Shown: positions 16,387 through 62,218 of the stretch, in pieces | Position numbering within the stretch: the first letter of the stretch is position 1 | Layout of the letters: each line of letters begins with the position of its first letter | IMG/VR virus record: IMGVR_UViG_3300050122_000027 | Strand: one strand, 5' to 3' | Length of the DNA: 64,000 bases | Source: a virus | Position numbers and translations under genes: made by a program | The notes under the pieces: model-generated | What the model was told of the DNA's origin: nothing | Seen by the model: the letters and a program-made list of their open reading frames with translations, nothing else | Database searches by the model: none

Positions 16387-16388
16387 AA

Positions 16389-16441
16389 AGCCACCTCTCG
16401 GAATCGAACCCTGTCCGTCGCTCCCAATTGAGCAAGGTGCC
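16389..16441 (-). pseudogene. degenerate tRNA remnant with no anticodon arm
   Basis: GGCACCTT-GCTCAATTGGGAGC...GGTTCGATTCC...AGGTGGC; T-stem broken. Confidence 0.5.
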
Positions 16442-16866
16442 TAATCTCCTCGTTTATTCAATTCTGCCATTTCTGCAATCATAATTCTTCGTAAAGAATT
16501 ATCTTCCTCATTAAGAGGATTTGACCATTTTCTCGTAATGAATTCAAGAACAATAGCACATTGATCCCATTTGATTACAAGATCATCTTGGATCTGTGGC
16601 AATAGTTCTTTCATTTCATGTACACGAATATTCCAAACATACTTTTGTTTATGTCCTTCTTGTTTGAATCCTGGTGCAATACGTCCGATTCCTGTAATCC
16701 GATGTAAGTATGCTAGTAGTACCATATTTGTATTTGAAACATTTACGGTTGCAAAAGCTGTTACTCCTACAGCTTTGTTCTTTGAGTTGGCATTAATAGT
16801 AATGCAACCTTCACCGTCAAAGATTGCTGCAACATATGATTTCTGTTTCTCTGTGAGGCGTTTCAT
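16441..16866 (-). CDS. single-motif LAGLIDADG endonuclease
   Basis: SYVAAIFDGEGCI...NVSNTN...LVIKWDQ; ATG 3 nt after tRNA-Thr. Confidence 0.85.
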   Translation of the reverse strand: MKRLTEKQKSYVAAIFDGEGCITINANSKNKAVGVTAFATVNVSNTNMVLLAYLHRITGIGRIAPGFKQEGHKQKYVWNIRVHEMKELLPQIQDDLVIKWDQCAIVLEFITRKWSNPLNEEDNSLRRIMIAEMAELNKRGD

Positions 16867-16868
16867 AA

Positions 16869-16941
16869 AGGTCCGGGTGAGGGTCGAACTCACAACCTGT
16901 CGATTACAAATCGACGACTCTGCCAATTGAGCTACCGGACC
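16869..16941 (-). tRNA. tRNA-Thr(UGU)
   Basis: Complete cloverleaf: GGTCCGG/CCGGACC; GTCGA-TT-TGT-AA-TCGAC; GTGAG-TTCGACC-CTCAC; no encoded CCA. Confidence 0.92.
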
Positions 16942-16972
16942 AACGGTGCTCTGCCAATTGAGCTAAGGTGAC
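16942..16972 (-). pseudogene. isolated tRNA 5' half
   Basis: GTCACCT-TA-GCTCAATTGGCAGAGC-A-CCGTT, abutting tRNA-Thr. Confidence 0.6.
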
Positions 16973-21691: not shown

Positions 21692-22858
21692 CCGTTGCCC
21701 TCAATTTGAATAACGGTACGTGGAAGCAGTCCGTCCGGTGAACCGCTGTAGACGCCGAAATACTCTTGTAGAATGGTTGTCAACAATGCTCCATTAGGAG
21801 CAACATAGAACATTGTGTACATACCATCAGCGAACTTGCTTGTGTCAATCTTGAATTCCCAAAGCTGTGTAGGGCCGGGAAATGTGTATGTTGTTGTTAC
21901 TGCAAGGTTCTGTACAACTTGCACCTTTGGATCTGGGTTCGGCATCTGGACGAATGTTTTGCTTGCCCAATCATACACTGTTCCATTATAAAACAGTGTG
22001 ATTCCTACTTGCTGTGTGCCAGGTCCAATATATTGGACTAAGTAAAACGGATTGCGAACCCAAAGAGCCATATCGCCTCCTATGATTGCATATGTCGAAA
22101 ACGTTCAATCGCGTCAGCCATTCGCAATGGCATTACTTCGCGATCTTGTTCAATCTTCATAATATCGAATGTTCCATCATTGACGAGAATGGTTGAAGGT
22201 CGGAAGATGATTGCCAAATCATGATCGATCTTCTGAAGCTGAACTGTTTGATCCATTAACTCAAAGAATCCAAGAATCTTAATCATGCTGAACGTAACAG
22301 CGAAGCCACTGTTTTGATTATATAGTTCACGACACGGATTGTTGAGAATACTGCAAGGATCAACTTCGATCAACGCATTGAGCCGATCAAGGGTCTCTTC
22401 ATCCCATTTATCATGGGGTCGAATCCAACGCCCAATTTTATCAAGATCGCGACCTTTGGTATCGATCTCGCTGCAAGGATTGGGGACTCGCACACCAAAT
22501 TGATTGATGTAGCCACTTGACATATTAGGTGTGTACCCGAAATTGATCATAATAATCCTGAATAGAATAGCGGGGCGTCCGTTCCCCGCCTAGTGTCAAG
22601 AGCTAAACACACCATCCTTGTCGAGTTTGCCCTTGTAGGTTGAATCAGAGTGACTGCGAATAATGATTTCGACCGGGCCTTCTTCGACACGTTCATCAAT
22701 GGTGATTGTAAAATCACCTTGTGGACTATTCACAGCAATGCCTTCAACCTCGCTGTGTTCAAACTTGACCGTTGCGTCGCAACGTAAGCCTTTTACATCC
22801 CTGGGATTGCCTTCAATAACTTTGATCATGATATCTCCGGTTGTTGGTTAGTAACTAA

Positions 22859-22926
22859 ATGTTAAGTGTGGAATCGAACCACAATCGCTAGGGTTCCCTA
22901 GTGCTCGACCGTTGAGCTACTTAACA
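22859..22926 (-). ncRNA. tRNA-like RNA with anticodon deleted
   Basis: TGTTAAG/CTTAACA acceptor; canonical D- and T-arms; anticodon stem CTAGG/CCTAG closes only GAAC. Confidence 0.75.
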
Positions 22927-56367: not shown

Positions 56368-56814
56368 TTACTTCCCTTGTCTATTCAATTCAGCCATCTC
56401 TAAGCAAATAATTCTTCTGAGTTGTTTTGCACTTTCTGTCAAAGGCATGTTAGATGTACTTGTACATTTAGTAAGAAATTCAAGCATCAATTCTGCTTGG
56501 GCGTGTTTTATAATAAGATAAGGCAACAGTGCTTCAAGAAACGGTTGTATTTGATTAACTTGTAATACCCAAGTATACGCTGTTTTATAATTTTCCTTGT
56601 CTCTTAGCTTAGAGCCAATGCTACCTAATCCTGTTTTCTTTTGTAACCAATCTACTACCGGCTTATATGTATTCGTTACAGATACATGAAGCCCATAAGT
56701 ATAGTCGAGGTACTCTTTACCTCGACGCTTCTTATGTTGGTAAACGGAAATTGAGCCTTCACCGTCAACAATACCAGCGATATATGAAAGCTGGATTGGT
56801 GTAAGCAATTTCAA
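56368..56814 (-). CDS. single-motif LAGLIDADG endonuclease
   Basis: SYIAGIVDGEGSI...SVTNT...LIIKHAQ. Confidence 0.85.
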   Translation of the reverse strand: MKLLTPIQLSYIAGIVDGEGSISVYQHKKRRGKEYLDYTYGLHVSVTNTYKPVVDWLQKKTGLGSIGSKLRDKENYKTAYTWVLQVNQIQPFLEALLPYLIIKHAQAELMLEFLTKCTSTSNMPLTESAKQLRRIICLEMAELNRQGK

Positions 56815-58784
56815 TATTGTCGCTCCGCATGGGCATTAATAATAGACTCTCTGAACAAACCGAGACTCATATCTTGCAACTTTCTCTTCTTCTTCAGATT
56901 CTCGATAATGAGTGCATCGGACGGAAGATGGACTGCATCGATGATTGTGAGACCTTTATTAATATCCATGCCAATGCGGTGAGCGCGGTCTTCTGACTGC
57001 ACACGAGACTCAGCGTTGAAGTCGTTGGAGTAATAATATTCTGTTGGTGATTCTGTGAGTGTAAGCCCAAGACCCCCTGATGCAGGGTGTGCAACGAAAT
57101 TGATCTTGGCAATCTGTCGCGTCTTGTCCTGGAAAAGTTCAAGCATCTCCGATCCGCGTCGTCCATCAAGAATACCTGATCCCTTCCAACCGCGACCATC
57201 TACTCGAATGGTTTCCCATCCAAGCTTCTTGGAAGCCGCCACAATACGATCAATAGAACCTTTGAATCCAGCGAAAGTCACGAACCGACCAACATCTTCA
57301 TGTTGGTCGAGAAGTTCGAGGAGGAAATCCTCTTTTGGACAAGGAACCTGAATGGCTTCTCGTTTGTATGCGGTGACAAAGCCATCTCCACCACAATTCG
57401 GACAAGTGATCTCCGCATCGGTGAAAACGTCTTCAGTGAGAACATCGGCTTTTGGCAATCGGAACAGATCACCAATCTCGACGCCGTAGCCTGAATATTG
57501 GTCGATATTCTCTGACGTGATCTCAATCTCATCTTCGACAAGCATCTTGTGCGTGATGGTCTTGTTGCCATCACAAAGCGGGCATGGCTTGTCACCGACT
57601 TCTTCATCAACATATTGAAAACCATCACTCAGCTCCCGCAGGAGTGTCATTGCCGAGATCGTATTCTTGGCCGATGCCACAATGATCTTGGCAGCGTTCA
57701 GTGTGGCTCTGCTTGGTGCAAGCTCAATCTGTTTGTAAATCTTGTCTGGCAGATCAAGACAATCCTTTTTGAACTTGACTGTGACCAATCCCTTCATACG
57801 CTCATACAGATAGGACACTTCATTGATTGAGGGAATCCAACTATGAGCATCTGCATGAGTAGAGAGAACTTTTGCCATTGGCCCATGAACATCATCAGAC
57901 TTGAGCTTACCACAGATACCACACTTCTCGGTATTGTCAAGCCAAGTGACAAGTTGAGGATACTTGCCACCGGAAACTGCGTCCTTCATAACAATCAGTG
58001 CAAGTCGCTTCTTGAACTTCTGAGGAGTGCCCTCTTTGAGAAAGCCAGGCTGTGCAACCTCACACTGATGCCACCAATCTCCAGGATCTTTCGGTGCTGG
58101 CGATCCGCTCATTTCGATTACATAGCCATTGTAACCGTACTCAGCTCGAACGGAATCAGCAAGATGCCTTGCAGCAACGGATCTCTGAGCCATTGGATTC
58201 TTGATCCGGCTTGATTCGTCGAAGATAACACCTTGTGGTGCCGGTTTCCCAACAGGCCAGTTCTCGACAATCTTCTTCAAGCCCTCGTAAGTGCAGAATG
58301 TCGGCTTGATCCGACAGCCCCACTTCTTCATCTCCAATTGAGCCGCGAAAAGAGCGCTCTTGGGAGCCACCCAGAACCAATCCGTGATGCCTGAATGCTC
58401 CATCACTTCGATTGCGGCAAGCGTCTTTCCGACGCCCATCTCTGCCGCCATGATATTGTAGTGATAGGTCAAAGCATCAACAACCAGATCGATCTGGTGC
58501 TTGTAAAGCGACCGGGTCGGCTGGTAGTCGGCGATCTTCGGTCTATCGAACCAAGCGTAAGGGTTCTGTCCGCCCAAGAATGAGAGTTGAAATCGATTCC
58601 TATAAGTATCCTTAATCGTCCAAGATTTGTCGTCTGGATTCCAGCGAGCACCTTCGAAGGATTTGACTTCCTCAATCAGCTTCTTGTTGAAGCCGAATTT
58701 GAGTGTGATATTCTTTGTGTCCGAAGTGATTGTGGCGGGATAAAGAAGTGAATTGGCCATCAATTTGGTTGGGAGCATGAACAT
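56811..58784 (-). CDS. SNF2-family helicase
   Basis: EMGVGKT, IFDES, MSGSP, GLGLTLT, QSEDRAHRIG. Confidence 0.9.
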   Translation of the reverse strand: MFMLPTKLMANSLLYPATITSDTKNITLKFGFNKKLIEEVKSFEGARWNPDDKSWTIKDTYRNRFQLSFLGGQNPYAWFDRPKIADYQPTRSLYKHQIDLVVDALTYHYNIMAAEMGVGKTLAAIEVMEHSGITDWFWVAPKSALFAAQLEMKKWGCRIKPTFCTYEGLKKIVENWPVGKPAPQGVIFDESSRIKNPMAQRSVAARHLADSVRAEYGYNGYVIEMSGSPAPKDPGDWWHQCEVAQPGFLKEGTPQKFKKRLALIVMKDAVSGGKYPQLVTWLDNTEKCGICGKLKSDDVHGPMAKVLSTHADAHSWIPSINEVSYLYERMKGLVTVKFKKDCLDLPDKIYKQIELAPSRATLNAAKIIVASAKNTISAMTLLRELSDGFQYVDEEVGDKPCPLCDGNKTITHKMLVEDEIEITSENIDQYSGYGVEIGDLFRLPKADVLTEDVFTDAEITCPNCGGDGFVTAYKREAIQVPCPKEDFLLELLDQHEDVGRFVTFAGFKGSIDRIVAASKKLGWETIRVDGRGWKGSGILDGRRGSEMLELFQDKTRQIAKINFVAHPASGGLGLTLTESPTEYYYSNDFNAESRVQSEDRAHRIGMDINKGLTIIDAVHLPSDALIIENLKKKRKLQDMSLGLFRESIINAHAERQY

Positions 58785-58833
58785 GATCAATCCTCGAAAG
58801 CTGCAAGCAGCTTGGGTGACTTGCTTTCGCAAG

Positions 58834-59370
58834 TTATATGAATACGAGAGTTCCGTCTGCTAAGCCTTGCTTCGACCACTTGCTCCAGACATCTTTCAAA
58901 TGCTGTTCGGTAGCAAGTCTAAAATAAATGAGATTGAAGAAAATTCGTAACTCATAAGATGTATGTTCTTGACAAATCTCCACAATAATATTCTTCCACA
59001 CTCTCAGATTGGCCGTTGCAATAAATACGGTGTCACTGTTGCAATCGATCAATAAGTCCGTTCCAAGTTTCAAGATTTCAATAAGCAAGGCTGGTTTGAC
59101 TTCACAAAGAAACGTAAGTGTAATATGCTGTAGGATGTGTTCCGCATGTTGAATCGCAACGTGTGCATCGCTACCAGGATGTCGAAATGCCGCCAAGGTT
59201 GGAATGAGTGATAGTAATGATCCCGCCTTGATTCCTGCATTGTCGCAACCGCGTGTCGGAGATACACCAGTAATAATGTGTGTATCATTGACGAAATTGT
59301 GCCAATCAAACTGCGGCACGCTAATTAATCTAACGTGCATTCCTTTTACGTACTTTTGTATTTGGCTCAT
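58834..59370 (-). CDS. possible degenerate ThyX-like protein
   Basis: V.LIS N-terminus and H..HILQHITLTF resemble the ThyX H.S..EH...TF region; lacks RHR. Confidence 0.3.
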   Translation of the reverse strand: MSQIQKYVKGMHVRLISVPQFDWHNFVNDTHIITGVSPTRGCDNAGIKAGSLLSLIPTLAAFRHPGSDAHVAIQHAEHILQHITLTFLCEVKPALLIEILKLGTDLLIDCNSDTVFIATANLRVWKNIIVEICQEHTSYELRIFFNLIYFRLATEQHLKDVWSKWSKQGLADGTLVFI

Positions 59371-59898
59371 CTAACGTTGATCCTACAGGATACTCACCGA
59401 GCAATATGAGACTATTGAGTCTCGCTTGAGCATCCACATGCTTGAAGCAACTCATTTGATTTGGAAAAGCTTTACCTTTGTAATAGACGTAATGCTTTTT
59501 GTTTTCAAACCCAAAAAATGCAACGACCGCATCTCGTTCTGGAGATGGAGCCATTGCATCAATTGATTCATTGAGTGTAACCATATAATACTTGAGTTTC
59601 AGTTCCCCGAACCCAAGTTGCCTTGCTTTTGAGAGGTTGATTGGAATAAGACTTTTGGCTTTGGTTTTAACCTTGGTTTCCTCGGGGCTTCTGTTACCGG
59701 AGGATAAGATCCTGGTTGCGACAATCGATAAAGATCAGCTTTGACTTTTGGTTTGTTCATCTTTGCTCTGGTAGATAAATGATAACCCCGAGCTGGGATA
59801 AATCCCCATGTATTGCTTTGTACAAGCAATATCACTGCTCCACTCGGGGGTAACTTTCCAACGTATACGATTGAAAATTACGCCAGGACAATGGCGTC

Positions 59899-60095
59899 TT
59901 GTTATGAATCGCGGAGACCCAACGTCCGCGTCCATTTCTCAATGTGGATTACTGGCTTCTGGTTCCAAGCATCCACAATCGAGAGAACAATAGTTGCTCT
60001 TGCGAATCAACTATCTTGTATGTGTGTTACTTCGATTACTCGAAGCGCTACACAAAACAACTTCCGAGTAGCCAGACACTACTCATCCATAACAA
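59899..60095 (-). ncRNA. multi-branch RNA domain
   Basis: 11 bp closing stem TTGTTATGGAT/ATTCATAACAA; GTAA and GCAA tetraloop hairpins inside. Confidence 0.6.
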
Positions 60096-60098
60096 GAG

Positions 60099-60166
60099 CC
60101 CTACACCTAGGATTCGAACCTAGCCGATTAACGTCGCGAAACATTAATCGTTTCCTGAAGAGTAGG
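60099..60166 (-). ncRNA. tRNA-like RNA with no D-arm and a long hairpin in place of the anticodon arm
   Basis: CCTACTC/GTGTAGG; CTAGG-TTCGAAT-CCTAG; CGATTAA...TTAATCG. Confidence 0.55.
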
Positions 60167-60170
60167 TAAA

Positions 60171-60241
60171 TCCTGATTGAGTATTTGCTTCTAAGAAGCA
60201 AATAACGAACCATCTTACAAGGACGACTCTCCCAACCAGGA
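60171..60241 (-). ncRNA. three-way-junction RNA domain
   Basis: TCCTGGTTGGG/CTCAATCAGGA; TATTTGCTTC-TTA-GAAGCAAATA. Confidence 0.5.
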
Positions 60242-60242
60242 G

Positions 60243-60444
60243 CGGGCAGAGATGGAATCGAACCACCGACCACAGAAACATTGATTGGTAGAATGAAGCG
60301 GTGGGATTTGAACCCACGATCAGCGTGAGTTTTGCCAACCAGACTGGCACTCACGAGCTTTTGTCATGGTTCACCGTTGAGCCGCTACGGCACGCTAATT
60401 CTTACAATGATGTTTCTGTTGCTCTACCATTGAGCTATCCACCC
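60243..60444 (-). ncRNA. tRNA scaffold with a 128 nt insert containing a second tRNA-like fold
   Basis: GGGTGGA/TCTGCCC; TAGCTCAATGGTAGAGC; GGTGG-TTCGATT-CCATC; anticodon stem extended to ACAGAAACAT/ATGTTTCTGT; inner GTGGG-TTCAAAT-CCCAC. Confidence 0.75.
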
Positions 60445-60450
60445 AAATAT

Positions 60451-60830
60451 GCCGATTGAGCAAGCCGAAGCTTCTTGAAATTTGTACAAGGTGTTCTGCC
60501 GAAGCAGTTCAGCAATGTTCAAGATTCCAAGTAATCTCTCAATCAGCCGTTTGACCTTGCGACCAAACGTCGCTACCGTCGATTCAACGATAACGATAAT
60601 CAATTGGCATCCCGCACACCACAATCGGGATTAGTCTTGCACCGGCTTTACATGGTAACATATATGAGTTACCTCATATACGCTTAGCCGATTCAGATTT
60701 CAGTGATCCGATCGTAAGATCGAATACTGGAATCCTATGCCTTCCCAACTGATATCAAGTGGTAAGAAGCAACAGCTCATTTATTGAGCCAATCCTCCGA
60801 AGAGGGTTCGCCAAAACTACTTCCCACCAT
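60451..60830 (-). ncRNA. structured RNA domains with UUCG/GNRA tetraloops
   Basis: GCTGATTGAG/CTCAATCGGC; CTGC-TTCG-GCAG; AAGC-TTCG-GCTT; CCTC-TTCG-GAGG; TATATGAG-GTAA-CTCATATA; 13 bp TGGTGGGAAGTAG/TTGCTTCTTACCA. Confidence 0.6.
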
Positions 60831-60831
60831 C

Positions 60832-60929
60832 AGGGATCGCTGGAATTGAACCAGTCTTTCGTCCTTGGAAAATAGATCCTCAGAGAGGCTAATTCCAAGT
60901 TCGACGTGCAGCCGTTACACCGCAATCCC
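60832..60929 (-). ncRNA. tRNA scaffold with extended anticodon arm
   Basis: GGGATTG/CGATCCC; CTGG-TTCAATT-CCAG; CTTGGAA/TTCCAAG capped by CCTC-TCT-GAGG. Confidence 0.6.
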
Positions 60930-60932
60930 AAA

Positions 60933-61045
60933 GGCCCAGCCAGGTTACGAGCCTGATGTGTCACTAATGATTGTATTGAGTCTACGTCTCGTAAACACAG
61001 ACTGTGCAATCATTCCGACACCGCTAGGCCATGTAAGGGCCGGGC
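60933..61045 (-). ncRNA. divergent tRNA-like scaffold with extended anticodon arm
   Basis: GCCCGGC/GCTGGGC; CAGG-CTCGTAA-CCTG; AATGATTG/CAATCATT; AGTCTG/TAGACT. Confidence 0.45.
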
Positions 61046-61286
61046 ATAATAAGATTTACCGAATATTCTCGCATCGTAAGATGGGAGACATCCGACAGTG
61101 ATCTACAAAGTGTTCCGGCCCCGCACACCGTTGAACGTTTCCGTAACGGGTACTAGTGATTACCGAAGGCCGATTTGGCAATCACCTTCCGACTTCACAA
61201 CGACTTGGCCCGTTGCTGTCATCGGAATCCACACGCCACCGATCAAGATGACGTGCAGCCGGTTCGGTCACTAAGACCGTTCCAAA

Positions 61287-61553
61287 TTACGAAGGTGGAA
61301 CCTGCTTGGACGGTTGAGCCGGATAGCCCATCGGCATTTGCTGGCCGGATGGCATCGGAGCTTGTCCGACCGGGCCGGTGTACGAGTACGTCAACGTCTC
61401 ATACCCACTGCAAGGAGCCATTTGCATCTGACCCTTGCAAGCCTGCTTGGCTGCTCTCTTGGCGGCTTTCGCAGCCTTGTGGCACTTGCCAGCCTCAGCC
61501 GGAAGTGACATCGCAATCAAGGCCACGAAAGCAAGTAGCATCCGAATCATCAG
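61287..61553 (-). CDS. small exported protein
   Basis: MIRMLLAFVALIAMSLPAEA signal peptide; ATGA overlap with the upstream gene. Confidence 0.6.
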   Translation of the reverse strand: MMIRMLLAFVALIAMSLPAEAGKCHKAAKAAKRAAKQACKGQMQMAPCSGYETLTYSYTGPVGQAPMPSGQQMPMGYPAQPSKQVPPS

Positions 61554-62218
61554 CGAGCCCTCGTACTCCCGGCCGCTTCCGGTGCCTGCTCGACCACCGT
61601 CTCGGGCGGAGAGAGAAACGTCTTGGTGACATCTGCAATCTCTCCGAGATCCGGGATCTCGAAGGGTGTCGAGCAGTCCTTGCAGACGGGTCCGTGCCAC
61701 GAGTAGGAGGTGTTCTTGATGAGCTTGACGCTCAGCGAGGCCGCTTTGCCAAGCAGTGCCTTGACGTTCGGGGCTTCTCGCCGGGCTGTCTTCGAGCCCA
61801 TCAGGAAGGTCGCGAACTTCTGGACCTTGGGAAGGTAGACGAGGTACTCTGGTCCGTACATGCACCCCGAATTCGGCTGGTCAGCTCGCTCTTGAAGCTT
61901 CTGAAAAGCGGGCGAGTCGGGATTGTGATAAGCGACGACCGGATCGGAGCCCGTATCGATCGCCTTCGGACGCCACTGAATCACCAACACGTCCACTTCC
62001 GCTCCGAGATCGATCACGTCCTTGTCCTTGACAAGTCCGTAGTGACCCATTGGGAAGGTTCCCTCCTTCACCGCATCGGAATTGCTTCCGAAAAGCTGAA
62101 GTCGAGGAAGGTAGTTGGCAGCGGCGGCAATCTTGGCGAACGCCTTCTCGTCATACGGATTCGCCGCGACGGGAATCAGTGCTCCAGGAGCAGCAACCGG
62201 CTCGATGTCAGACATCAT
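61550..62218 (-). CDS. conserved phage protein, possible ssDNA-binding protein
   Basis: YLPRLQL...WRPKAI...GPEYLV..P; position in the replication module; function inferred. Confidence 0.4.
   Translation of the reverse strand: MMSDIEPVAAPGALIPVAANPYDEKAFAKIAAAANYLPRLQLFGSNSDAVKEGTFPMGHYGLVKDKDVIDLGAEVDVLVIQWRPKAIDTGSDPVVAYHNPDSPAFQKLQERADQPNSGCMYGPEYLVYLPKVQKFATFLMGSKTARREAPNVKALLGKAASLSVKLIKNTSYSWHGPVCKDCSTPFEIPDLGEIADVTKTFLSPPETVVEQAPEAAGSTRAR

Follow-up and report, generated by a model that had tools for sequence, protein, structure and literature searches.

Between a conserved gene for a 225-amino-acid protein and a conserved gene for a protein of about 177 amino acids, upstream of an SNF2 helicase gene, the genome of an uncultured peat phage carries an RNA island of about 1.3 to 1.4 kb that encodes no proteins and reads on the minus strand (positions 59872-61190 of the window, which is the whole 64,000-nucleotide stretch that we analysed from IMG/VR record IMGVR_UViG_3300050122_000027). 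ParB-like genes lie on one side of this neighbourhood and primase, helicase, and polymerase genes on the other. The non-coding stretch is limited upstream by a small signal-peptide ORF, whose stop codon lies at 61287, and downstream by a terminator-like hairpin (59897-59880) with a U-tract running to about 59872; the core of the extent originally proposed (59860-61190) stands, with the non-coding run now corrected to reach from 61287 down to about 59872. In line with the earlier impression that no credible ORF is present, the island contains no ATG-start ORF, and six island ORFs compared with Pfam and PHROGs gave no match. The 225-amino-acid neighbour resembles Pam3_Gp34/DUF5895-type phage proteins and has no link to RNA, and the idea of a partner protein was rejected, since the conserved genes on either side enclose small ORFs that are themselves unconserved. 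A consensus scan found no sigma-70-like promoter for the island. One RNA-library contig continues past the putative terminator to 59805, and beyond the terminator lies a further hairpin, adjoining the next ORF on its upstream side (ATG at 59760), which may be a separate element from the island. Read along the minus strand, the features are as follows.

61046..61190, minus strand: 5' hairpin domain, two closed hairpins, one with C(UUCG)G (-45.9 kcal/mol, z -2.4)
60933..61045, minus strand: module A, a rod-like hairpin of 113 nt with an 8-bp closing helix
60832..60929, minus strand: module B, a tRNA-like RNA (fold z -3.0)
60445..60831, minus strand: multi-hairpin domain, not tRNA-like, 387 nt (MFE -141 kcal/mol, z -6.2)
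60243..60444, minus strand: module C, a canonical tRNA body whose unconstrained MFE structure is a cloverleaf (z -3.7)
60293..60389, minus strand: module D, nested in C (19.8 bits with our own tRNA model, E 7e-5 in 3 kb)
60171..60241, minus strand: Y-shaped module, 71 nt, a closing helix and two hairpins (MFE -28.1 kcal/mol, z -5.5)
60099..60166, minus strand: module E, a mini-tRNA without a D-stem (fold z -3.0)
59899..60098, minus strand: 3' domain, a 12-bp closing helix and a junction of five hairpins (MFE -87 kcal/mol, z -6.1)
59872..59897, minus strand: terminator-like hairpin, 6 bp, four of the six G-C, then AAUUUUC (consensus scan)
59784..59849, minus strand: 66-nt closed hairpin or weak cloverleaf (9.7 bits with our own tRNA model, E 0.07)

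The back-to-back folded domains that the original prediction placed on the minus strand are in agreement with the thermodynamics of the island. The whole-island MFE was -500.9 kcal/mol on the minus strand versus -418.9 kcal/mol on the plus strand, a gap of 82 kcal/mol, the two structures contained 62 and 29 G-U pairs, respectively, and the z-scores of the modules against dinucleotide shuffles ranged from -2.4 to -6.2. Loop motifs are likewise strand specific, as had been claimed: C(UUCG)G loops near 60798, 60500, and 60466 and GNRA loops (GAAA, two GUAA, and two GCAA) are present on the minus strand only. The T-loop motif GGTTCRANTCC occurs six times in the window, always on the minus strand and four times inside the island, against an expectation of 0.36 for the whole window, and none of 100 shuffles reached six. 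Most island modules are closed by their own terminal helix and separated by 1-4 nt, a packing like that of tRNA operons. When the pair span was limited to 230 nt, the partition function showed domain boundaries at both ends of module C (60451-60446 and 60243-60242); without a span limit, its domain boundaries were uninformative. The Y-shaped module has a domain boundary at 60171-60169.

The original prediction listed five tRNA-like folds, and B, C, and E are solid examples of tRNA-like bodies without decoding capacity. Module C is the most complete. Its anatomy, taken from the unconstrained MFE and a descriptor scan, includes a fully paired acceptor (7/7), a D-arm of 4 bp and 7 nt, the variable loop GGUC, a T-arm reading GGUGG-UUCGAUU-CCAUC, and G73, and it has the canonical nucleotides U8, A14, G18G19, A21, G53, U54U55C56, A58, and C61. 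The anticodon position is taken by a perfect 10-bp helix, which runs on into an interrupted rod and has 128 nt enclosed within it. Module B combines a 7-bp acceptor with a GG-bearing D-arm, a T-stem of 4 bp, and a UUCAAUU T-loop, and its anticodon arm is lengthened to 4+7 bp with a 21-nt loop; it scored 24 bits across positions 1-71 of the Rfam tRNA model RF00005 (gathering score 29), with an insert of 40 nt where the model expects 11. In module E, the 7-bp acceptor, which has a single U-U mismatch, is accompanied by a GG-containing linker of 9 nt, a 9-11-bp hairpin, and a consensus T-arm. The tRNA elbow, defined as a 7-bp acceptor on a UUCRANY T-arm together with the GG of the D-loop, is complete in C, is present in B with the 4-bp T-stem, and in E comprises acceptor, T-arm, and linker GG in the absence of a D-stem.

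Module D is tRNA derived but partial. It has an acceptor-like helix and a T-arm (GUGGG-UUCAAAU-CCCAC) and no D-stem, and its fold is ambiguous (z -2.4). Its long arm comprises a 7-bp helix (CGUGAGU/ACUCACG), a bulge, and a 4-5-bp stem with a 5-7-nt loop; the distal hairpin can form a 7-nt loop, GUCUGGU, in which position 33 is U and position 37 a purine. The assertion that no fold in the island has a 7-nt anticodon loop therefore holds for B, C, and E and is inexact for D. Nevertheless, an arm of 11-12 bp is too long for decoding, and a 5-bp anticodon stem with a 7-nt loop was found in none of B, C, D, and E. The nesting of D within C might suggest an intron, an idea that we rejected since removing either D or the whole insert leaves a helix without an anticodon loop. 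Module A was also rejected as tRNA-like: it is an unbranched rod (MFE -50.0 kcal/mol, z -5.8) with a loop that departs from the T-loop consensus, and it scored only 3 bits with our own tRNA model. Overall, the view of this region as a non-decoding, structured RNA locus on the minus strand is upheld in its structure, strand, and tRNA bodies, and the replacement of anticodon arms by long helices or domains is borne out in the genuine tRNA bodies, with A lost as a tRNA and D retained only in part.

Module A and the other non-tRNA domains (60445-60831, 60171-60241, and 59899-60098) are lineage-specific folded RNAs. The 60445..60831 domain contains several hairpins of 9-12 bp with almost perfect pairing, besides UUCG, GUAA, and GCAA loops, and has no Rfam match, and a single-sequence covariance model of the 3' domain found no homolog in 82 related sources. 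Since these domains are unconserved in the 82 sources and the islands share only tRNA-like pieces, a function for them is not arguable from conservation.

No Rfam family matches the island; GOLLD, ROOL, YrlA, tmRNA, and group I introns, all named for comparison in the original prediction, are absent. Rfam searches at gathering thresholds, and with permissive filters up to an E of 10, returned only the sub-threshold tRNA match of B and T-arm fragments; there was no full-length tRNA match for C, D, or E, and the only sequence in the window to pass the tRNA gathering score was a tRNA-Thr at 16869-16941. ARAGORN reported no tRNA, no tmRNA, and no tag reading frame in the island. GOLLD gave no match at E up to 10 in 59000-62000 or at E up to 1 in the islands of four relatives (L004, L006, L007, and L009), and the ROOL covariance model matched neither the island nor these four. 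The tmRNA model RF00023 found only 18-nt T-arm matches (15.8 and 9.3 bits, compared with a gathering score of 47), group I introns had no Rfam match in the island, and YrlA had none either, with no TROVE domain among the 91 window ORFs scanned.

Some of these systems nevertheless resemble the island in part. The YrlA tRNA-like module, known from bacteria and some phages and partnered by Ro60, is a circular permutation whose ends lie on the anticodon side, whereas the island modules keep normal tRNA connectivity. The tRNA-like domain of YrlA and bacterial Y RNA was reportedly described by Chen et al. in 2014 as a non-decoding mimic with T-arm, D-arm, and acceptor. In tmRNA, a D-stem-less acceptor/T-arm domain recalls E, and a long helix with a large folded insert recalls C, but the island has no tag frame, no passing score, and no G3-U70 in any module. 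T-even tRNA clusters yield stable non-tRNA RNAs, the T4 species 1 and 2 RNAs, which are co-transcribed and then released by RNase P. The stable RNAs of T-even phages and T5 are like the island modules in being non-tRNA or tRNA-like RNAs in phage tRNA loci with spacers of a few nucleotides, a likeness by description only; the island is far larger, has almost no decoding tRNA, and contains tRNA bodies whose anticodon positions hold large inserts, including a nested one. RNase P cuts the dimeric pre-tRNAs of phage T4, with spacers shorter than 5 nt, as well as many tRNA-like RNAs (PMC11143913), and stable RNAs and "tRNA-like molecules" of phage tRNA clusters were catalogued by Moen, Seidman and McClain in 1978 (cited in PMC11143913). 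In plant mitochondria, t-elements are tRNA-like structures that direct processing by RNase P and RNase Z (PMC1920247); like tRNA punctuation in general, they mark cleavage sites within longer transcripts. Both t-elements and the island modules are non-decoding tRNA-like structures, but cleavage in the island is only predicted, and t-elements flank organelle mRNAs whereas the island is a phage non-coding array with cargo in its anticodon arms.

The position of the island is that of the tRNA/tmRNA locus of a large phage family, and islands persist there in several lineages. In L004, L007, and L009, the homolog of the 225-amino-acid gene is followed by a gene-free, strongly folded syntenic gap (z -4 to -8, gene strand), each with at least one tRNA-like element lacking a normal anticodon loop. 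Across 80 further relatives, this position is occupied by ordinary tRNAs, by two true tmRNAs (L027, 143 bits, and L034, 137 bits, with Rfam), and by tRNA bodies whose anticodon arms are capped or enlarged (L014, L051, L071, L049, L074, L032, and L069 1406-1501). Detection of these two tmRNAs shows that the search is able to find tmRNA in this phage family; L027 4524-4614, considered as a TLD-only mini-tmRNA, is actually the 3' end of the full tmRNA. Anticodon arm size varies from 3 bp with a 3-nt loop in L014 and about 4 bp with a 6-nt loop in L007 to 68 nt in L004 versus 148 nt in the window island, and the same tRNA body with such widely varying arms fits a scaffold that tolerates anything at the anticodon position. 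The architecture of E recurs in L004 (4805-4867) and L006 (4770-4838). Compared by descriptor scan, the three copies have fully different stem sequences, yet 20 of 21 acceptor positions and all 15 T-stem positions pair, suggesting selection on shape.

Pairwise blastn among the islands of the window, L004, L006, L007, and L009 matched only tRNA-like pieces of 18-24 nt; a motif present in five copies in the L069 tRNA array (GGCCGGA...GGTTATC) is absent from the window island, and a search with a loose D-arm regular expression gave mostly noise. No exact 28-mers of the island were found in IMG/VR, and blastn and tblastn against GenBank phages gave no DNA match. The helicase is at most 27% identical to those of cultured phages, and a helicase-anchored search of JGI metagenomes recovered only two distant loci, neither with an island.

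RNA libraries support transcription of the 3' non-tRNA domain, and the support is limited to it. Two independent metatranscriptomes have contigs covering only 59805-60084 within the 3.5 kb compared, evidence that consists of assembled contigs rather than reads, from libraries of a kind that can contain DNA. The contigs represent a variant strain with two substitutions, at 59906 and 59907, in the closing helix of the 3' domain. Both libraries share the variant, and both substitutions keep pairing (59906 with G60088 and 59907 with G60087), so that G-C/G-U becomes G-U/G-C, an exchange that is neutral only for a minus-strand RNA. In addition, a soil metatranscriptome contig carries a diverged homolog of 61095-61190, in the 5' hairpin domain.

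We consider it reasonably probable that the island is an operon of stable RNAs on the minus strand, made up of tRNA-derived modules that cannot decode and of folded domains, and that tRNA-processing enzymes cut it apart. Modules B, C with its nested D, and E would be three or four tRNA derivatives that kept the acceptor/T-arm stack and mostly the elbow and lost decoding, a long helix or branched domain standing in for the anticodon arm. Host tRNA maturation enzymes would recognise these bodies, RNase P at the 5' side and RNase Z or exonucleases, possibly with the CCA-adding enzyme, at the 3' side, and would cut the transcript into discrete nuclease-resistant RNAs, the bodies acting as processing and stability handles for RNA inserted in or lying between them. 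Several features count against this model: the scan for a sigma-70-like promoter was negative, an RNA-library contig passes the putative terminator, the non-tRNA domains are unconserved, the acceptor/T stacks of B and D are 11 bp rather than 12 bp, E has its acceptor mismatch, and global thermodynamic folding also gives long-range pairs between modules.

A more specific proposal, which we put forward tentatively as a possibility, is that the tRNA bodies serve this phage lineage as a natural expression chassis from which the host's enzymes would release cargo, carried in the anticodon arm or between handles; the same enzymes would stabilise the cargo and might add CCA to it, and the cargo, evolving fast, would act against host factors. 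A close parallel is artificial. Ponchon and Dardel are said to have engineered in 2007 a tRNA scaffold in which cargo replaces the anticodon stem-loop and the cell's tRNA machinery processes and stabilises the chimera. Module C has the same layout, although the scaffold is a laboratory design and C is known from sequence alone; to our knowledge, no natural counterpart of the engineered scaffold has been described.

The long-range helices of the global MFE are what would be expected if the island were one giant ornate noncoding RNA working as a whole, with the tRNA-like modules as structural parts or tethered passengers, a reading that seems to us unlikely. The models for it would be GOLLD and ROOL, large ornate phage or prophage RNAs beside tRNA islands; GOLLD has a linker that sometimes contains tRNAs, assembles into a nanocage, and has a universally conserved 3' region (10.1101/2024.12.08.627333, PMC5737381). 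The island is like them in its size class (1.3 kb), phage origin, and adjacency to tRNAs, and its distinct 3' domain is the part seen in RNA libraries. However, neither family matches the island or those of its relatives, and the 3' domain, unlike that of GOLLD, is unconserved. The island has no core conserved across relatives and resembles beads on a string, most modules being self-closed with short spacers, rather than a single multi-junction fold, and the RNA libraries show only the 3' 230 nt and not the whole.

Recurrence of non-decoding bodies in the family, with shape kept while acceptor sequence and anticodon arm change freely, would also suit decoys that titrate or mislead host factors reading tRNA shape without the anticodon, for which acceptor-end toxins, tRNA-modifying or -processing enzymes, and defence sensors are candidate targets. 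This account is compatible with processing, and on it the fast-changing cargo and the rapid turnover of content between relatives would reflect an arms race; at least two further non-decoding tRNA-like elements lie in the window outside the island (22858-22926 and 16441-16388). The best-known tRNA-directed defences, anticodon nucleases, need an anticodon loop that is absent here, and antisense and direct-repeat searches of the island against the rest of the window stayed at chance level (longest match, 14 nt), and we regard decoys as improbable.

Rather doubtful, too, is the suggestion that the island is debris, a decaying tRNA/tmRNA cluster that bears mobile-element scars and does nothing itself today. 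Because homing-endonuclease cassettes insert into tRNA genes, the nesting of one tRNA in another would be accounted for, and the window encodes 14 HNH_3 proteins and one LAGLIDADG endonuclease. A live example of nesting by insertion lies at 16970-16388, where a second tRNA-like gene holds a tRNA-Thr and a LAGLIDADG ORF, placed precisely within its anticodon arm; D resembles a tRNA with insertions, and island content is unconserved. Decay should break stems, yet the z-scores of all modules are strongly negative and the two strands differ greatly. The disrupted gene at 16.4 kb does show decay, with three of five T-stem pairs remaining, whereas C keeps all its canonical tertiary nucleotides and gained its perfect 10-bp helix, a contrast that supports selection on shape. 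The pairing retained in the strain variant and the persistence of equivalent islands in several lineages also argue against debris. Finally, a DNA-level element (a replication origin, packaging site, or recombination hot spot with hairpins that are DNA palindromes) might be imagined from the abundance of inverted repeats and the location between ParB-like and replication genes, but it is very improbable given the asymmetry between strands in folding energy and G-U pairs, the T-loop and cloverleaf features, the one-stranded UUCG and GNRA loops, a base composition without AT skew, and the fact that no direct repeats or iterons were noticed when reading the island sequence.

The tRNA genes of phages are generally attributed to codon supply or to evasion of defences that cut tRNAs. 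In the present case, an entire phage family retains non-decoding tRNA bodies at the locus of real tRNAs and tmRNAs, and in one clade such bodies have grown into a folded RNA island of 1.1-1.4 kb, which provides a concrete system for how tRNA-associated phage noncoding RNAs such as GOLLD, ROOL, and the T4 stable RNAs might be made. If the bodies of the proposed operon are indeed handles, then phages arrived at the tRNA scaffold well ahead of any laboratory, the islands would form a store of uncharacterised, fast-evolving functional RNAs, and a genuine class would lie concealed under the annotation label "tRNA-undetermined". Should the chassis proposal be true, the island would represent nature's own version of the engineered tRNA scaffold, and the anticodon-less tRNAs found across this phage family would constitute a distinct class of functional RNA.

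The minus-strand island at about 59872-61190 contains no ATG-start ORF between 61287, where a small signal-peptide ORF ends, and the following ATG at 59760, and its six longest ORFs found no match in PHROGs, in agreement with the original prediction that it holds no credible ORF. The 1,331 nt fold to a minimum free energy of -500.9 kcal/mol with 62 G-U pairs on the minus strand and to -418.9 kcal/mol with 29 G-U pairs on the plus strand. Neighbouring coding sequence mostly gave z-scores of +1.5 to -2 (about -3.5 in some 200-nt windows in 59301-59700), and the modules of the island gave the following values against dinucleotide shuffles.

61045-60933, minus strand: module A, z = -5.8
60929-60832, minus strand: module B, z = -3.0
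60831-60445, minus strand: 387-nt domain, z = -6.2
60444-60243, minus strand: module C, z = -3.7
60389-60293, minus strand: module D, nested in C
60241-60171, minus strand: 71-nt Y-shaped module, z = -5.5
60166-60099, minus strand: module E, z = -3.0
60098-59899, minus strand: 3' domain, z = -6.1
59897-59872, minus strand: terminator-like hairpin

UUCG and GNRA loops occur on the minus strand only, and together with the module z-scores and the asymmetry in folding energy they bear out the predicted back-to-back folded domains with minus-strand loops. The T-loop motif GGTTCRANTCC is found six times in the window (0.36 expected), always on the minus strand and four times within the island. For the most part, then, the observation of a folded RNA island is real.

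Five tRNA-like folds had been proposed, and B, C and E stand as such. C is beyond doubt a tRNA body. Unconstrained folding gave a cloverleaf in which the acceptor is 7/7, the D-stem 4 bp and the D-loop, containing GG, 7 nt long, with the variable loop GGUC, a consensus T-arm and all the usual tertiary nucleotides. Its anticodon stem forms a perfect helix of 10 bp that continues into an interrupted rod enclosing a 128-nt insert. B aligns end to end with the Rfam tRNA model (24 bits, against a gathering score of 29) and carries 40 nt in place of the anticodon stem-loop. E is a mini-tRNA without a D-stem, in which the acceptor is followed by a 9-nt linker that includes GG, then by a hairpin and a T-arm, and both C and E possess a 12-bp acceptor/T stack and a T-loop. 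D, also without a D-stem, combines a T-arm with an acceptor-like helix and reaches 19.8 bits against a tRNA model built from tRNAs of this phage family. Because its long arm can close a 7-nt loop with U33 and R37, the statement that none of the folds has a 7-nt anticodon loop is not exact. A was ruled out as tRNA-like, being an unbranched rod-like hairpin without a T-loop.

The proposed comparison with Rfam (GOLLD, ROOL, YrlA, tmRNA, group I/II introns) was carried out with Rfam 15. No family matched the island at the gathering score, and at E values up to 10 the only matches were B and T-arm fragments labelled tmRNA, with no GOLLD, ROOL, YrlA, group I/II intron or RNase P RNA. ARAGORN likewise called neither a tRNA nor a tmRNA within the island. 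Stable RNAs are known from phage tRNA clusters, and large tRNA-associated RNAs are also known from phages; a 1.3-kb array made largely of cargo-bearing, anticodon-less tRNA bodies, one of them nested, is absent from Rfam and was not found in the literature searched.

The modules are self-closed by terminal helices and lie 1-4 nt apart (A/B, C/71-nt module, 71-nt module/E and E/3' domain), a spacing typical of tRNA operons. When base pairs were allowed to span no more than 230 nt, the predicted domain boundaries coincided exactly with the two ends of C and also fell before E. RNase P, RNase Z and the CCA-adding enzyme recognise the 12-bp acceptor/T stack and the T-loop. Dimeric precursors of phage T4 with spacers of <5 nt, and many tRNA-like RNAs, are cut by RNase P (PMC11143913), and the t-elements of plant mitochondria are non-decoding tRNA-like processing signals (PMC1920247). 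The island bodies resemble t-elements in being tRNA-like and non-decoding, and we infer a processing role by analogy. From these features and precedents, the island is probably a polycistronic stable-RNA operon, in which tRNA-derived bodies would serve as processing and stability handles for cargo held in the anticodon arm or between bodies; all processing steps of the transcript are presumed. A hypothetical role of the tRNA bodies as decoys would be compatible with this processing model. It is possible that the island is instead a single GOLLD-like giant RNA, but its architecture is modular, and it has neither a model match nor a conserved core.

Contigs from two metatranscriptome runs of separate studies (soil, 2017; permafrost, 2025) provide modest evidence for an island RNA, given that their ends and strand are not readable, that DNA contamination is possible and that the runs were selected by island sequence. 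Across the 3.5 kb compared, 59805-60084 was the sole stretch with contigs; the soil run contained an additional 151-nt contig, a diverged homolog of the island 5' end, and one contig extends beyond the predicted terminator. The upstream limit, 60084, falls 14 nt short of where the 3' domain is predicted to start and would fit release at the 3' side of E. The same variant, with four substitutions, occurs in both runs; two of the substitutions are in the unpaired tail. The others, at 59906 and 59907, have G60088 and G60087 as their partners in the 12-bp helix that closes the 3' domain, where they change G-C/G-U to G-U/G-C, keeping the helix and its energy only as minus-strand RNA; the 177 nt of the 3' domain proper have no substitution. 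This structure-keeping variant, the fold statistics and the strand asymmetry contradict pure decay of the island; together with RNA-specific motifs, the same asymmetry also contradicts a DNA-level element. Scanning 82 related sources with a covariance model built on the 3' domain recovered only that domain itself, marking the non-tRNA domains as lineage-specific. Antisense complementarity of the island to the rest of the window was not above chance.

Two further non-decoding tRNA-like elements lie in the window outside the island, at 22858-22926 and 16441-16388 (54 nt).

22858-22926, minus strand: capped tRNA, otherwise canonical, with a 5-bp anticodon stem and 4-nt loop GAAC; 55 bits with the family model
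16388-16970, minus strand: split tRNA-like gene, 5' half 16970-16942 and 3' part within 16441-16388, broken in the anticodon arm
16941-16869: tRNA Thr-UGU in the insert, the only canonical tRNA of the window
16866-16444: LAGLIDADG endonuclease ORF in the insert, which also holds a degenerate copy of the 5' half

ARAGORN reads the capped tRNA as tRNA-??? with a 2-nt anticodon, and similar capped tRNAs occur in five related contigs (L007, L014, L051, L071 and L086). The outer T-stem of the split gene has decayed to 3 of 5 pairs, and group I intron models found no match at 16388-16970. The 91 window ORFs scanned include 14 HNH_3 homing-endonuclease-type proteins (three with AP2 domains) and one LAGLIDADG; single domain matches were to NYN (predicted RNase), RNase H, DHHA1, DNA ligase OB domain, pyrimidine dimer glycosylase and dUTPase. 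With tRNA-Thr and the LAGLIDADG ORF nested at 16970-16388, tRNA nesting by mobile-cassette insertion is documented in this phage genome, and D may have arrived inside C in this way. Unlike the disrupted 16.4-kb gene, C has a perfect body and a perfect 10-bp helix, which argues that it is maintained.

The window comes from an uncultured phage that occurs in peat metagenomes (peat DNA runs contain as much as 100% of the words sampled), and nearly all of its genes are on the minus strand. A contig of about 112 kb carries the helicase cluster. The window helicase is at most 27% identical to those of GenBank phages, leaving no close cultured phage, and has >2000 relatives, the closest of them 55% identical. 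A family A DNA polymerase, two ParB-like genes and ribonucleotide reductase also lie near the island, with the following genes.

56811-58832: SNF2-type helicase
61287-61541, minus strand: ORF of about 85 aa lying between the island and the conserved 225-aa gene; signal-peptide-like at the N-terminus, tail rich in Pro/Gln; no Pfam or PHROG match, not conserved in related contig L004
61550-62227: 225-aa gene, with a 49% identical homolog in the closest syntenic contigs

In these relatives a gene-free gap follows the 225-aa homolog (1,147 nt in L004, 1,240 nt in L007, 1,127 nt in L009; several smaller gaps in L006); it is absent from L008 and the distant L001. The gaps fold as strongly as the island, with z-scores down to -7.9 on the gene strand, and share no sequence with it except tRNA-like pieces. 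L004 has a C-like tRNA body in which the GCUC...GAGC D-arm, GGUC variable loop and GGUGG T-stem start are all as in C, whereas the acceptor differs and the anticodon insert is 68 nt. E-like elements are a mini-tRNA in L004 and one element in L006; across these and the window copy, acceptor and T stems differ almost everywhere, with pairing kept at 20/21 and 15/15. The anticodon loop is shortened in a tRNA of L007 (53 bits in Rfam), and L009 has an odd multi-hairpin tRNA-like element.

Among 80 IMG/VR relatives, ordinary tRNAs for Gln, Glu, Met, Ile, Leu, Thr, Asn, Asp and Ala occur at the same position upstream of the helicase. This position also holds true tmRNAs in L027 (4292-4616, 143 bits in Rfam) and L034 (4130-4459, 137 bits; ARAGORN tag peptide ATPVRLAA), with tRNA-Glu and tRNA-Gln genes directly downstream, in a slot corresponding to the island. 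Putative suppressor tRNAs are present in L070 (3539-3612, CUA) and L086 (4343-4414, UUA), and some family members may read stop codons. Anticodon arms are capped or enlarged in several relatives.

L014 and L084: 3 bp + 3 nt
L051: 4 bp + 3 nt
L071: 6 bp + 4 nt
L049, 2100-2175, and L074, 9811-9885: capped by a tetraloop on an 8-9-bp stem
L032 and L069: longer anticodon arms

ARAGORN calls the L049 and L074 elements tRNAs with 4-nt anticodons; they look non-decoding rather than like frameshift suppressors. In L069, a tRNA array (465-2140) alternates five canonical tRNAs with tRNA-like elements and contains five copies of GGCCGGA-N(4-8)-G(G/A/C)TTATC, one of which falls within a tRNA-like gene of 96 nt (1406-1501); this motif is absent from the window island and could represent a small element that is mobile or binds protein. 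Overall, the contents of the slot in relatives and the additional window elements show that the island occupies the stable-RNA locus of this phage family, and that tRNA bodies unable to decode recur across the family and are not peculiar to the window.
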